This document shows positions 51,206 through 59,717 of a stretch of 64,000 nt of DNA, one piece after another. The notes beneath the pieces are model-generated. The model was not told the origin of the DNA. It made no database searches and worked only from the letters and a program-made list of their open reading frames with translations. The stretch is from Pyrinomonadaceae bacterium. Its GTDB lineage: Bacteria; Acidobacteriota; Blastocatellia; Pyrinomonadales; Pyrinomonadaceae. Within the stretch, counting starts at the first letter, position 1. Each line of letters starts with the position of its first letter. The position numbers and the translations under genes were made by a program. Location of the stretch: the NCBI GenBank assembly GCA_036389335.1, contig DASVQC010000085.1, positions 1,408-65,407 of the forward strand, in the 5' to 3' direction.

Positions 51206-51284
51206 CCGTGAGCCGTAAGCCGTAAACCGTGACAAGGAAGAACCGGGTTTTCTCCTGTCACGGTTTACGGTTCACGGTTCACGG
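51206..51284. repeat. Long hairpin 'a' with stem built of tandem heptamers (CCGTRAR x4 in each arm)
   Basis: The left arm is ccgtgag ccgtaag ccgtaaa ccgtgac aagga (51206-51238). The reverse complement of the right arm (51253-51284) is ccgtgaa ccgtgaa ccgtaaa ccgtgac agga. Pairing is 29 of 32 Watson-Crick, with 3 transition mismatches and a 1-nt bulge. The right arm includes the last codons and TGA stop of the UXS gene. The left arm ends 9 nt before the ATG at 51196. Confidence 0.85.
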
Positions 51285-52228
51285 CTTTTCACTCTGTCGG
51301 CGAAGTAATCGATGGTCTTCTGCAAGCCTTCGCTCAGGTGGACGCGGGGCGTCCAGCCGAGGAGGGCCTGCGCGCGCGAGATGTCGGGCTGCCGCTGTTT
51401 GGGATCGTCCTGCGGGAGCGGGCAGAACTTGATTTTGACCTCGCGCCCGCACAGGCGCGCGATCTCTTCGGCGAGCTGGCGGATGGTGAACTCGCCGGGG
51501 TTGCCGAGGTTGACGGGCGCGTTGACGTCGTAGCCCGCGCCCGCCCCCTTGTTCATCAGCCGCACGAACGCCTCGACGAGATCGTCCACGTAGCAGAACG
51601 AGCGCGTCTGGTTGCCCGTGCCGTAGAGCGTCAGCTCCTCGCCCCTGAGCGCCTGCACGATGAAGTTCGAGACGACGCGCCCGTCGTCTTCGAGCATGCG
51701 CGGCCCGTAGGTGTTGAAGATGCGCGCGATGCGGATGTCCACGCCGTTCTGCCGGTGGTAGTCCATCATCAGAGTCTCGGCGACGCGCTTCGACTCGTCA
51801 TAACAGGCGCGAATCCCGATGGGGTTGACGTGGCCCCAGTAGTCCTCGGTCTGCGGGTGGACTTCCGGGTCGCCGTACACTTCCGACGTTGAGGCTTGGA
51901 AGATGCGGGCGCGCACGCGCTTGGCGAGGCCGAGCATGTTAATCATGCCCATCACGCTCGTCTTCACCGTCTTGACGGGGTTGTACTGGTAGTGGACGGG
52001 CGAGGCGGGGCAGGCGAGGTTGTAGATCTGATCGACTTCCAGAAGGATCGGCTCGATCACGTCGTGGCGCAGCAGCTCGAAGCGCGGCTCCGGGAGCAGG
52101 TGCGCGACGTTCTCCCTGCGCCCCGTGAAGAAGTTGTCGAGGCACAGCACCTCGTGCCCGTCCGCGAGCAAACGCTCGCACAGGTGCGAGCCGATGAAGC
52201 CCGCGCCGCCCGTCACCAGTATCCTCAT
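51272..52228 (-). CDS. UDP-glucuronate decarboxylase (UDP-xylose synthase, UXS-type SDR)
   Basis: 318 aa. The sequence [102 protein letters not shown] is highly characteristic of UXS. Confidence 0.9.
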
Positions 52229-52280
52229 CTCGCTCGCGTGATCCTTCTCCGATCAGACTGCCGCACGCCGGATGGTAACA

Positions 52281-52320
52281 CGACCGCGCCGCGCGGCGCG
52301 CGACCGCCCGGCGCGGCGCG
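52281..52320. repeat. Tandem 20-nt direct repeat (2 copies) in the uxs-wzy intergenic gap
   Basis: cgaccgcgccgcgcggcgcg (52281-52300) is followed immediately by cgaccgcccggcgcggcgcg (52301-52320). 18 of 20 positions are identical. Each copy contains a GC palindrome. Confidence 0.7.
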
Positions 52321-52339
52321 CGCCTTCAGGGCCGGGCCG

Positions 52340-57321: not shown

Positions 57322-58290
57322 CTAAGACTGCCGCCCGCGGTGGTACTCGACGACGCGCTCGATGATGCCGTCGAGCGACATCTCGGGGCGGAAGCCGACG
57401 AGCGCGGCGACCTTCGTGATGTCGGGCACGCGCCGCGGCATGTCCTCGAAGCCCTCCTCGTAAGCCTCGTCGTAGGGGACGAGGACGATCTCGGACTCGG
57501 ACCGCGTGATCTCCTTAATGCGCCGCGCGAGTTCGAGGATGGAGACCTCCTCGTTCGAGCCGATGTTGAAGACCTGCCCGACCGCCTCGTCCGAGTCCAT
57601 CAGCCCGACGAGCGCGCCCACCACGTCGCCCACGTAGCCGAAGCAGCGCGTCTGCTCGCCCGTGCCGTAGACGGTGATGGGCCGCCCGTCGAGCGCCTGC
57701 CGGACGAAGGTCGGGATGACCATGCCGTACTGCCCGGTCTGCCGCGGCCCCACCGTGTTGAAGAGGCGGACGACGACCGTCGGCAGCTTCTTCTCCCTCC
57801 AGTAGGCGAGGGCCAAGAATTCGTCGATGGCCTTCGAGCAGGCGTAAGACCAGCGCCCCTTCGTGGTCGCGCCCATCACGAGGTTGCCGGACTCTTTGAA
57901 CGGGACGTCGTTCGACAGGCCGTAAACCTCCGAGGTCGAGGCGACCAAGACCTTCTTCCGCTTCTTGCTCGCCTGCGCCAGCACGACCTCCGTGCAGTGC
58001 ACGTTCGTCTCGATGGTGCGCACGGGCGACTCGACGATCAGCTTGACGCCGACCGCCGCGGCGAGGTGGACGACCACGTCGCACTCGTCGATCATCTCGG
58101 CGACGAGCGACTGGTTGTTGACGCTGTCGATGCGGTAGTGGAAGCGCGGGTTCTCTTTCAGGTGCGCGATGTTGCGGATCGAGCCGGTCGAGAGATCGTC
58201 GATGACGTAGACCTCGTCGCCGCGCGCGACGTAGGCGTCCGAGAGGTGCGAGCCGATGAAGCCGGCCCCGCCTGTGATGAGTACACGCAA
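57322..58290 (-). CDS. NAD-dependent epimerase/dehydratase (extended SDR)
   Basis: The real protein begins (L)[36 protein letters not shown] propose a TTG start at 58290, 5 nt after the upstream stop. The track's 170-aa Arg-rich N-terminal extension is rejected. The catalytic YACSK (YxxxK) is present. Sugar specificity is unknown. Confidence 0.8.
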   Translation of the reverse strand: MRVLITGGAGFIGSHLSDAYVARGDEVYVIDDLSTGSIRNIAHLKENPRFHYRIDSVNNQSLVAEMIDECDVVVHLAAAVGVKLIVESPVRTIETNVHCTEVVLAQASKKRKKVLVASTSEVYGLSNDVPFKESGNLVMGATTKGRWSYACSKAIDEFLALAYWREKKLPTVVVRLFNTVGPRQTGQYGMVIPTFVRQALDGRPITVYGTGEQTRCFGYVGDVVGALVGLMDSDEAVGQVFNIGSNEEVSILELARRIKEITRSESEIVLVPYDEAYEEGFEDMPRRVPDITKVAALVGFRPEMSLDGIIERVVEYHRGRQS

Positions 58291-58295
58291 AAAGT

Positions 58296-59636
58296 TCAGT
58301 CCCCTTTCACGCGCGCCGCCGCGCGCCCGATGTCGCCGGAAGTCCCCGCGCCTTCGCGCCGCCCGGGCGCGCGGGTCGCGAGCAAGTTTTCGTAAAGCCC
58401 GAGCACGTCCTCGACGAGCCGCTCCTTCGAGTAGTTGCGCTCGACGAACGCGCGCCCGCGCGCGCCCATCGCCGCGCGCAGCTCCGGGTGGTCGGCGAGG
58501 TGTTCGAGCGCGTGGCTGAAGGCCTCGGCGTCGCCCGGCTCGACCTGCACGCCGCGCGCGCAGACGCGCCACGCGGCGGGCCGGCGCAGCTCCGACGCCT
58601 CGACGCCGCCGAGCAGATCGACGACGCCGCCCACGGCCGTCGCCGCGACCGCGCGCTCCGAGGCCATCGCCTCGATGAGCGTGAGCGGCGTGCCCTCGTT
58701 CAGGGAGGTGAGCGCGACGACGTCGAGCGCGGCGTAGAAGTTCTCCGGGTCGTCGAGCGTGCCCGTGAAGGTCACGTCGTCGGCGAGCCCGAGCGCGCAC
58801 GCGTGCGTTTCGAGATCGAGCCGGAGGTGGCCGTCGCCGACGACGAAGAAGAGGGGGCGCGCCGCGCCGTGATCGCCGCCCTCGCGCCGCGCGGCGAGCC
58901 TCGCCTTGAGCAGCGCGGCGGCCTCTAAGAACAGCCGGTGGTTCTTGATCTCGGTCAGGCGACCGACGATGCCGACGAGCAGCGCCTCGTCGTCGGCGAC
59001 GCCGAGCCCCGCGCGCGCGGCGCGGCGGCGGGCGCGCGAGTCTGAGAAGACCGCGGCGTCGAGCCCGAGCGGCACGATTCTAAACTGCGCGGGGCGACCG
59101 ACGCCAAACCGACCGTTGATCTCGGCGAGCTGCTGCGGGCTGATGACGACGATCACGTCGGTGGCGATCCGCGCCAGCGCGCGCTCGACGGCGAGGAAGA
59201 GTCTCGTCTTCGCCGCGCCGTAGTAGCTGTGGAAGACGTGCCCGTGGTAGGTGTGCACGAAGCGGCAGGCGCGCGGGCGGCCCGCGAGCGCGGCGGGCGT
59301 CAGCCACTTATAGAGGAGGCCCGCGCAGCGCCCGACCGTACCCGCCTTCGCCGTGTGCGTGTGGACGACGTCGGGGCGCAGGCGGCGGAAGAGCCGGTAG
59401 AGCTTCCACACCGTCACCGCGTCCTTCGGCGAAATCTCGCGGCTCATCTCCGGGATGATCACGGGCTCGACGCCCTGTCGCGCCGCGAAGTAACTCATGT
59501 CGTCCTCGCCCGGCGGGACGGTCCCCGCCACGAGCACCGACTCGTGGCCCGCGTCCCTCAGGCCCGCCGTCAGCCACGCGACGTGGCGCGCCGGCCCCCC
59601 GACGTTCAAGCGCGCGATGATGCGAAGGACTCTCAT
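58296..59636 (-). CDS. GT4 (GT-B) glycosyltransferase
   Basis: I prefer the ATG at 59636 (MRVLRIIARLNVGGPARHVAWL), a typical GT4 N-terminus. The track start at 59648 lies inside hairpin 'd'. The C-terminal block is LTSLNEGTPLTLIEAMASERAVAATAVGGVVDLL (E-x7-E). Confidence 0.8.
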   Translation of the reverse strand: MRVLRIIARLNVGGPARHVAWLTAGLRDAGHESVLVAGTVPPGEDDMSYFAARQGVEPVIIPEMSREISPKDAVTVWKLYRLFRRLRPDVVHTHTAKAGTVGRCAGLLYKWLTPAALAGRPRACRFVHTYHGHVFHSYYGAAKTRLFLAVERALARIATDVIVVISPQQLAEINGRFGVGRPAQFRIVPLGLDAAVFSDSRARRRAARAGLGVADDEALLVGIVGRLTEIKNHRLFLEAAALLKARLAARREGGDHGAARPLFFVVGDGHLRLDLETHACALGLADDVTFTGTLDDPENFYAALDVVALTSLNEGTPLTLIEAMASERAVAATAVGGVVDLLGGVEASELRRPAAWRVCARGVQVEPGDAEAFSHALEHLADHPELRAAMGARGRAFVERNYSKERLVEDVLGLYENLLATRAPGRREGAGTSGDIGRAAARVKGD

Positions 59637-59637
59637 A

Positions 59638-59717
59638 GCACTCGGCACTCAGCACTCAGCACTCGGCAAGTCAGAACACGTAGTTTGGCTGACTACTGAA
59701 TGCTGAATGCTGAATGC
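59638..59717. repeat. Long hairpin 'd' with stem built of tandem heptamers (CACTCRG / CTGAATG)
   Basis: The left arm is gcactcg gcactca gcactca gcactcg gcaagtcag (59638-59674). The right arm is ctgactactgaatgctgaatgctgaatgc (59689-59717). The reverse complement of the right arm, gcattcagcattcagcattcag-tagtcag, aligns with 59645-59674. Three C/T differences become G-U wobbles in the minus-sense RNA. The element fills the gap between the stop at 59721 and the start at 59636. Confidence 0.85.

Follow-up and report, generated by a model that had tools for sequence, protein, structure and literature searches.

What kind of element fills the gaps of a bacterial polysaccharide operon with long hairpins, each of them built of short tandem repeats and each using a different repeat unit? 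The question is raised by a 64,000-nucleotide (nt) stretch of DNA from a Pyrinomonadaceae bacterium (contig DASVQC010000085.1; hereafter the window, by which the whole of the analysed stretch is meant), in which a first-pass annotation made from the sequence alone had described four such structures, here called hairpins a to d. It had proposed for them roles in differential mRNA decay or processing, or in occlusion of the downstream start codon, and these roles are plausible. The explanation that we favour, and consider probable, is that the four hairpins are members of a lineage-wide class of intergenic palindromes of the Blastocatellia/Pyrinomonadaceae, similar to repetitive extragenic palindromes (REPs), which change in length by 7-nt slippage and are co-transcribed as stem-loops that act as punctuation.

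Re-reading of the sites and repeat-finding tools agree on four inverted repeats with tandem-array arms at the places first described (Table 1). The repeat units first assigned to a and c stand, and those of the other two had to be amended: the repeat of b is really a 14-mer of two alternating heptamer variants, and the two arms of d differ in unit, with GCATTCA units in the 5' arm and TGAGTGC in the 3' arm (mRNA sense) and one G.U pair per unit. According to Tandem Repeats Finder, a 7-nt period is repeated 3.9-4.7 times in either arm of a, b and d, and an 8-nt period 2.9 times in c. The elements are 61-91 nt long, with arms of 26-39 nt, and have a G+C content of 48-56%, against 68% for the window.

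Table 1. Positions in the window of the four hairpins and of the genes and stop codon that belong with them.
Feature	Positions	Strand	Description
Hairpin a	51206-51284	-	Arms 51206-51244 / 51246-51284; unit CCGTRAR; CCGTGACAGG core; ~3.5 heptamers per arm
Hairpin b	55214-55304	-	Arms 55214-55251 / 55267-55304; unit TCAGAGG; mRNA sense GAGGTCA/GAGGTTA
Hairpin c	57177-57237	-	Arms 57177-57202 / 57212-57237; 8-mer CTTTGCGC; inner GCGTGA...TCACGC helix
Hairpin d	59637-59718	-	Arms 59637-59667 / 59688-59718; CACTCRG in one arm, CATTCAG (reverse complement) in the other
TGA stop of epimerase gene	51272-51274	-	Inside 5' arm (mRNA sense) of hairpin a; reading frame traced
Host operon-like string	49343-63833	-	Pfam and JGI gene calls; order conserved across Pyrinomonadaceae metagenome-assembled genomes (tblastn)

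Each of the four folds as a single long hairpin on either strand, with energies (minus / plus strand, kcal/mol) of -53.5 / -57.8 for a, -61.7 / -56.8 for b, -50.4 / -48.3 for c and -45.0 / -35.2 for d. When both strands were folded against 200 dinucleotide shuffles per hairpin, a control that the first-pass annotation had called for, z-scores were -5.1 to -9.5 and none of the 200 shuffles folded equally well. Hairpins were also sought by a scan for ungapped arms, which scored +1 for a Watson-Crick pair, -1 for a transition mismatch and -2.5 for a transversion. At a score of at least 15 the window contains five hairpins, against 0.3 per dinucleotide-shuffled window, and at a score of at least 19 it contains three, against none in shuffled windows; the fifth match at the lower threshold is a 15-bp GC palindrome within an open reading frame (ORF) at 30790. 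Hairpins b, c and d are identical across three independent assemblies covering the window's population (L081, L082 and L083; loci and contigs are cited here by L numbers), and hairpins of this class are also present on multi-Mb contigs of metagenome-assembled genomes (MAGs), so that they are no assembly artefact. The source contig, L081 (JGI 3300034172 Ga0334913_000082), runs on past window position 64000 and there carries an AGCTGTT heptamer hairpin 1 nt past a stop (L081:4627-4747; unit as in L064:1723) and a CTCTGTG-type hairpin (L081:5912-5984; family as in L051, L054 and L056), which brings its total to six hairpins, each with a different unit.

Genes of the window were delimited by ORF calling guided by G+C content at third codon positions, together with Pfam and JGI gene calls, and synteny across loci was followed by tblastn. 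All four hairpins lie, as first described, between co-directional minus-strand genes, here those of a WecA-type polysaccharide cluster with the order AsnB-like, methyltransferase, RmlA-like, RmlC-like, GT1, epimerase, WecA-like GT4 (which carries a CoA-binding domain), CBM protein, Wzy-like, epimerase and AMP-binding enzyme. Hairpin a separates an epimerase gene (51272-52228) from the AMP-binding gene (49343-51196), and its array encodes the last four codons of the epimerase (S-R-E-P) plus the stop. Hairpin b fills the spacer between the WecA-like stop (55302-55304) and the ATG of the CBM gene (55212-55214); its repeat stem begins 2-4 nt past that stop, and in the folded structure the UGA stop is base-paired, within the outermost helix, to the UCA of ..UUCAUG. 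Hairpin c lies in a 187-nt spacer, 84 nt past the epimerase stop (57322-57324) and ahead of the WecA-like ATG (57132-57134), and hairpin d stands 2 nt past the RmlC-like TAA (59721-59723) and directly before the GT1 ATG (59634-59636), a start that is backed by the JGI gene call in L081. The observation that three of the hairpins abut the downstream start is thereby borne out, the distances being 9 nt for a, 4-6 nt for b and 0-1 nt for d, with 42 nt for c. A missing Shine-Dalgarno (SD) motif was considered as a special trait of the hairpin-preceded genes and was ruled out, because SD-like motifs are sparse ahead of most genes throughout the window and their absence here is unremarkable.

The architecture is not confined to this locus. 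The sample of relatives comprised 80 loci with WecA-like orthologues (61-76% identity), labelled nearly all as Pyrinomonadaceae, Blastocatellia or Acidobacteriota MAGs and totalling 1.28 Mb, or 1.35 Mb with the window. The same scan returned 188 hairpins, 92 of them tandem-armed, that is, with a common tandem period in both arms; the period was 7 in 66, 9 in 13, 8 in eight, 10 in four and 5 in one. A scan of related genomes for intergenic bias had been suggested as a check at the outset, and the bias is pronounced: 91 of the 92 lie outside ORFs, 76 of them between co-directional genes. Since so many tandem-arm hairpins occur across related loci, the architecture is a lineage-wide class and not a peculiarity of one locus. 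Period-7 arrays are also the commonest short tandem arrays in the sample (113 of them; no other period from 4 to 12 exceeds 57), and 66 of the 83 that are intergenic are located within hairpins, with 41 distinct heptamers among these 66. The stem typically starts right after a stop codon (median distance 2 nt; between -15 and +10 nt in 50 of 76), and the downstream end usually lies 0-30 nt ahead of the next start. Two further regularities were sought and rejected: stop codons, which a 7-nt period could supply in three frames, are not enriched in the arm after the gene (27 of 66, against 25.7 expected from composition), and the 3' array is neither significantly longer (37 versus 29) nor significantly more homogeneous (37 versus 30) than the 5' array.

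Occupancy differs from junction to junction and, at a given junction, from genome to genome. A hairpin is present at the AsnB/RmlA junction in 13 of 31 loci, at RmlC/GT1 in 13 of 28, at RmlA/GT1 in 11 of 23, at WecA/CBM in 22 of 70, at epimerase/WecA in 16 of 50 and at GT1/epimerase in 8 of 57, and it is never found at junctions with overlapping ORFs (RmlA/RmlC, 0 of 31; CBM/Wzy, 0 of 19; AsnB/methyltransferase, 0 of 15). The same junction may hold a hairpin in some genomes and a 0-25-nt spacer, or overlapping stop and start codons, in others. Very stable stem-loops placed straight after stops, many of them between convergent genes in unrelated contexts, could be thought to be transcription terminators or attenuators inside the cluster. 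However, no U-tract follows any of the four, by direct reading and as the first-pass annotation had remarked in denying them the status of canonical terminators, and among 77 co-directional hairpins, the set used for all strand tests (wobbles, folding energy and T-tract), only five have at least 6 T in the 10 nt after the stem. In addition, stems of 26-39 bp with about 50% GC are unlike canonical intrinsic terminators, and the hairpins are situated within a syntenic co-directional string, 0-9 nt ahead of the next start. Termination is therefore a highly improbable explanation.

The relationships among the repeat units are most informative as to how the class is maintained. Units within one mismatch of each other make up 34% of pairs from the same genome and different junctions, 9.6% of pairs from the same junction in different genomes and 5.3% of background pairs; units follow the genome more than the junction, and the elements are thus copied or homogenised within genomes, with some vertical retention. 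The first impression that the architecture is conserved and the primary sequence unrelated thus holds as far as one architecture is made from different units, and fails in that each unit recurs in related genomes. Homologues of hairpin a occupy the same epimerase/AMP-binding junction in L047:16742-16806, L006:15813-15880 and L001:12454-12559; at 9 of the 25 predicted pairs at least one sequence has a double change, and in the L001 version the unit is TCGTGAA/TCGTAAA, with the other arm changed to match. Hairpin b aligns with the WecA/CBM hairpins of L002 (11829-11902) and L007, among which a change from GAGG to GATG is matched by CCTC to CATC in the partner arm. The unit family of hairpin d (TGAATGC/GGAATGA) reappears at the WecA/CBM junction of L001, L017 and L023. 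Hairpin c is matched at its own junction by L017:9801 and has further copies in L004, L017, L023 and L028, and a pattern scan for its core placed the family in unrelated gene contexts, convergent and divergent gene pairs included, with at least 120 metagenome contigs carrying it; the neighbours of eight sampled copies are CobW, SDR, GcvT, transketolase, SdhA, an OPT transporter, and M48 and M61 peptidases. Single 22-kb MAG loci can hold three to five copies of one family (L017, L051). The hairpins are members of repeat families, which are gained and lost at permissive junctions and homogenised within genomes.

Several other palindromes accompany them. One family has near-identical 39-nt arms, TTCTCTGTGCAACCTCTGTGTTCTCTGTGTCTCTGTGGT, with loops that differ from copy to copy (L051:3241, 4719, 7490, 11807 and 14628; L054:7412; L056:7245), and many families with 8-11-nt units begin with a CCAC/CAC 'head' (L079, L090, L110, L148). 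The contigs with c-family copies also bear heptamer hairpins, families of 8-11-nt units starting with CAC, and GTAG-type REPs; classical-looking palindromes of this last type (..GTCAGTACCGCGAGCGGTAGCGAGCG..) are found at L112:1745, 3177, 7236 and 10068, L120:184, 6224, 9946 and 12023, and L155:8548. Near-identical arms with variable loops, as well as common CAC heads, suggest that the arms may be recognised by sequence. They could, in that case, be double-stranded DNA sites for a protein reading the heptamer iteration, such as a nucleoid protein, gyrase or a regulator, the palindrome being incidental. Such a role would account for the conservation of arm sequence, and not just of pairing, between copies with variable loops (the five in L051, the c-family), and REPs are known to bind proteins (PMC2817692). 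It is nevertheless most improbable, given that at least 41 different heptamers among 66 hairpins speak against a single sequence-specific reader and that a 7-bp spacing is mismatched to the helical repeat.

Pairing between the arms is maintained as the arrays diverge. Of the positions at which a unit departs from the consensus of its own arm, 67% keep a Watson-Crick pair (94% at consensus positions), and in the c-family the column pair 49/84, beside the fixed core, is T-A, A-T, G-C or C-G in 51 of 79 copies, whereas independent columns would give about 28. Copying between the arms at the DNA level would explain the maintained pairing as well as selection on an RNA would. Copy number, in turn, differs between close relatives (L026 versus L028; L006, L029 and L067), which fits slippage in 7-nt steps, and no strain-level variation in copy number was seen at b, c and d among the three assemblies, a small sample.

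In behaviour the hairpins resemble REPs, bacterial interspersed mosaic elements (BIMEs) and REP doublets forming hairpins (REPINs), repeats that are associated with RAYT (Y1 transposase) genes. Like those repeats, these are extragenic imperfect palindromes which form stem-loops and are repeated within and between genomes; they are concentrated after stops, between co-directional and convergent genes, and are tolerated inside operons, where they would be transcribed as stem-loops; and their units are closer within a genome than at orthologous sites. They differ from REPs in that the arms are tandem arrays of a 7-11-nt unit instead of a unique 20-40-bp sequence, in that dozens of units coexist, and in the order of their arms (G-first, see below), which is undescribed for REPs.

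A number of points weigh against the REP-like reading. REPs measure 20-40 bp and carry a terminal GTAG or CGTC tetranucleotide (PMC3733652), whereas the window elements measure 61-91 nt, a and c have no such head, and the GTAG of b (ACGTAGAGG) and of d (CAGTAGTC) are at inconsistent ends. A single conserved REP sequence may exceed 100 copies per genome (PMC2817692); in about 74 kb of the window's genome each of the six units was seen once. The order of the arms is not covered by the REP analogy. A single gene cluster lies at the centre of all the sampled loci, the related MAGs do not count as independent samples, and the ORFs of the relatives were taken by a longest-ORF heuristic. Nor is the mRNA strand favoured: isolated transition mismatches in the 77 hairpins read as G.U in sense 46 times and in antisense 52 times, all transition mismatches 74 and 66 times, and the sense strand folds better in 41 hairpins and the antisense strand in 36 (p=0.57). 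With neither a wobble nor an energy asymmetry, there is no positive sign that the mRNA strand is selected, and the elements could be tolerated DNA without function. Finally, some arrays continue the end of the upstream gene. The array GATGAAT GATGAAT GCGGAAT of L017/L023 is in phase with the last two codons and the stop, the GATGAGT GATAAGT... array of L026/L028 is likewise in phase with the upstream gene end, and these cases fit growth in place better than insertion.

The in-phase arrays indicate that growth in place contributes at some junctions, and it might be asked whether it accounts for everything, each hairpin being born where it stands, with no movement, by duplication of the upstream gene end or of an old spacer in 7-nt steps and by template switching that adds the inverted copy. 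Besides the phase of the arrays and the copy-number differences among close relatives, this account can draw on L066, where GAAGAGTGA is followed by GAGTGAC units, and on the empty spacer of L073, which holds GGACTCC, the seed of the L057 units. Against it, one genome repeats a unit at several junctions with different upstream gene ends, the arms of the c-family are conserved in at least 120 unrelated contexts, and the in-phase cases may represent only one or two ancestral events common to related MAGs. Birth in place throughout is, in our opinion, quite unlikely.

Strand neutrality bears even more directly on the proposal that the hairpins are cis-regulatory RNAs specific to this operon, each selected on the mRNA strand for differential decay or start occlusion. 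The first-pass annotation had argued for selection on the transcript from arm-to-arm differences that read as G-U in the mRNA sense and as A-C on the other strand. A majority of G.U in that sense is confirmed for b (3 G.U, 1 A.C) and d (4 G.U, 2 A.C), although b also has two transversions and d a G.G, and the G.U that recurs in d goes back to one difference between the units, which was multiplied with the array and did not arise repeatedly. Hairpin a shows the opposite (3 G.U, 4 A.C) and c has two pyrimidine-pyrimidine mismatches, so that, with the family-wide tallies of wobbles and energies given above, the argument falls. Operon-specific regulation would accord with hairpins of differing sequence that recur, from genus to genus, at equivalent junctions of a conserved operon, with compensatory changes that keep the pairing, with the greater stability of b and d on the mRNA strand and with stems that bracket stop and start codons. 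It is at odds with the absence of a family-wide asymmetry, with the greater stability of a on the antisense strand, with the many genomes in which the same place is empty and tight, with c-family copies beside unrelated genes, convergent pairs included, and with units that track the genome rather than the junction. We consider it unlikely.

The units form a limited vocabulary common to the genomes, and one genome tends to reuse a unit at several junctions. Under the REP-like reading, arms would lengthen and shorten by 7-nt replication slippage, their complementarity would be kept by arm-to-arm copying (template switching or conversion) and/or by selection for pairing, and the products would persist only in small non-overlapping spacers after stops. 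At the RNA level we infer co-transcription, cleavage and effects on expression. Co-transcription with the polysaccharide operon is suggested by the syntenic co-directional string, in which stem-loops of 26-39 bp would bracket the upstream stop and the downstream start. RNase III needs roughly 20 bp, which stems of this length exceed, and long stems block 3'-5' exonucleases; the stems are thus putative RNase III substrates and putative barriers to such exonucleases. Intercistronic stems are known from the RNase III hairpins of the phage T7 early mRNA and from REP-stabilised malE-malF, where, after cleavage or exonuclease arrest, a 3' stem remains to protect the upstream cistron; those are likewise long intercistronic stem-loops, but of unique sequence and with demonstrated cleavage, whereas cleavage is here predicted from stem length. 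A ribosome terminating 0-4 nt before the stem would have to open its base and would thereby free the strand just upstream of the next start, which the helix keeps beside the stop; only after this opening would that start be accessible. Such opening could preserve coupling across an 80-nt insertion, and it may dampen the upstream gene, as for E. coli REPs near stops: REP stems within ~15 nt of a stop are said, by Liang, Rudd and Deutscher in 2015, to stall terminating ribosomes and to lower expression of the upstream gene. The net effect would be a punctuation by which the mRNA is divided into segments, with translation at the junction either coupled or dampened.

The short tandemly repeated repetitive (STRR) sequences of cyanobacteria are heptanucleotide tandem repeats, and the origin and function of heptamer repeats have been an open question since. 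Heptanucleotide arrays were also recognised among long simple-sequence repeats (LSSRs) by Mrazek 2007, as summarised in PMC4679880. TAACTGA direct repeats are found a few nt upstream of starts in Beggiatoaceae, and also in cyanobacteria and Bacteroidetes (PMC4679880), and GGGNATC heptamer repeats in Xanthomonas/Nostoc (PMC4692102). The arms of a, b and d are likewise direct, intergenic heptanucleotide arrays of at least three copies (c has a period of 8 and 2.9 copies), and the Blastocatellia elements have in common with these systems the preferred 7-nt period and the intergenic position, often just upstream of starts. The known arrays, by contrast, are direct, with one or few genome-typical units (MacGregor noted one inverted case among 170), whereas 66 of 83 are here paired with an inverted array, 41 units occur among 66 hairpins, and the phylum is another one.

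The only experimentally dissected heptamer-array hairpin found in our literature search is that of the Haemophilus influenzae hmw1A 5' untranslated region (UTR). There, one arm of a long hairpin consists of a transcribed (ATCTTTC)n array, cleavage by RNase III alters expression, and both expression and changes in repeat number require that enzyme (PMC12721329). Here, too, a heptamer array serves as a hairpin arm at surface-structure genes. In hmw1A, however, only the left arm is a repeat and the right arm is a G-rich region, the hairpin occupies one locus, within a promoter-proximal 5' UTR, and the array is hypervariable with at least 11 units. The present hairpins stand between cistrons, have an array of 3-5 units in either arm and did not vary in length among three assemblies. 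The comparison raises the possibility of phase-variable simple-sequence-repeat switches for surface polysaccharide genes, which the adjoining surface-polymer genes, the hmw1A precedent and the copy-number variation among related species would suit. Yet b, c and d do not differ among the three independent assemblies (a small sample), the arrays are short and lie between ORFs instead of between promoter and gene, and the c-family flanks housekeeping genes, which makes such switches improbable.

Palindromic microsatellite repeats of Fusarium mitochondria, which consist of short tandem units, are optional between close relatives and have been proposed to be mobile (PMC7218506), come close in form; they are organellar and eukaryotic, with other units and size, and lack an operon context. 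The hairpins are not integron attC sites, imperfect palindromes that lie between mobile promoterless cassettes beside an integrase, the flanking genes here being a syntenic biosynthetic operon across the 80 loci with no cassette array. Rfam 15 gave no match to the hairpins at gathering score, and sub-threshold matches only to eukaryotic miRNA-precursor models, which are generic long hairpins. The statement of the first-pass annotation that it knew of no inverted tandem-heptamer hairpin class agrees with the open-access full-text literature, in which we found no description of one in bacteria, and the inverted heptamer-array hairpins of the Blastocatellia are apparently a widespread, undescribed kind of repeated palindrome.

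The heptamer hairpins obey a rule of their own with regard to the order of the arms. Among period-7 hairpins the G-rich, C-poor arm comes 5' in 61 and 3' in 6; the counts are 55 versus 6 in cluster loci (p=5e-11) and 6 of 6 in independent metagenome loci, the latter including convergent junctions (4 of 4). TCAG/CAGT occurs only in 5'-arm units (14:0) and CTGA/ACTG only in 3'-arm units (13:0). The bias persists when the hairpins are collapsed to 52 unit families (38 versus 10) and is independent of overlap with a stop codon; no such bias was found in hairpins of other periods or in non-tandem hairpins. Of the hairpins in the window, b conforms to the rule and a is neutral; c and d depart from it. 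Because a palindrome reads alike on both strands, the polarity is a property of the order of the arms itself, and an orientation relative to genes is ruled out; an influence of the neighbouring start codon is weakened as a cause by the convergent-junction hairpins, which are G-first too.

Rho loading sites are defined by a high C/G ratio and the absence of structure (PMC13613805). A testable idea is that a C-rich, G-poor first arm, naked until its partner emerges, would resemble such a Rho loading (rut) site, and candidate processes behind the arm order are Rho escape during co-transcriptional folding, or a dedicated mechanism of 7-nt stepping and template switching. The 3' arms, moreover, often have the form NNACTGA (AAACTGA, CTACTGA, CCACTGA, CAACTGA) directly ahead of the start codon, in the same sense as the TAACTGA arrays of Beggiatoaceae. 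All of this might be combined in a speculative picture, which is as a whole unlikely to be right, of self-propagating palindromic microsatellites of the Blastocatellia whose strict arm order is set by a strand-symmetric process, which have been recruited as RNase III punctuation, and which would have a heptamer-recognising factor in common with the TAACTGA/STRR repeats of Beggiatoaceae and cyanobacteria. The arm-order polarity and the stop-hairpin-start geometry together make a testable rule.

Most heptamer arrays in this lineage come as complementary pairs, which ties the question of heptamer repeats to that of the REPs and provides a concrete, testable structure. For annotation, the elements account for many of the 60-120-nt gaps in Acidobacteriota operons and may mislead gene callers, for instance where an array supplies the last codons and stop of the upstream gene, as in hairpin a. 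Even if they were merely tolerated selfish DNA, they would still be of use for following genome dynamics in a soil lineage that is abundant and poorly cultured.

The remainder of the window differs in content. Its first 46 kb hold another polysaccharide cluster, with exosortase EpsH, GT1s, two AsnB-like genes, Wzx, Wzy and a heparinase-like gene, and an MBOAT gene on the opposite strand (46880-48343) separates this exosortase-type cluster (1-46000) from the WecA-type cluster (49343-64000). The first-pass annotation had seen no comparable structures in the first 49 kb, and indeed some 18 co-directional gaps of at least 40 nt in this part contain no tandem-arm hairpin; its attribution of the hairpins to an exosortase-type locus was mistaken, the EpsH cluster having none and the neighbouring WecA-type cluster all four. 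Two gaps of the exosortase-type cluster (39497-39551 and 20870-20932) contain ordinary short GC-rich stem-loops without tandem units. The same cluster carries two tandem c-di-GMP-I riboswitch aptamers on the minus strand (9184-9269 and 9606-9709; RF01051, 55.4 and 54 bits), directly upstream of a 1000-aa ORF (6167-9169) that has no Pfam match and neighbours the exosortase EpsH gene (4845-5960) and a TPR protein (1531-3981).

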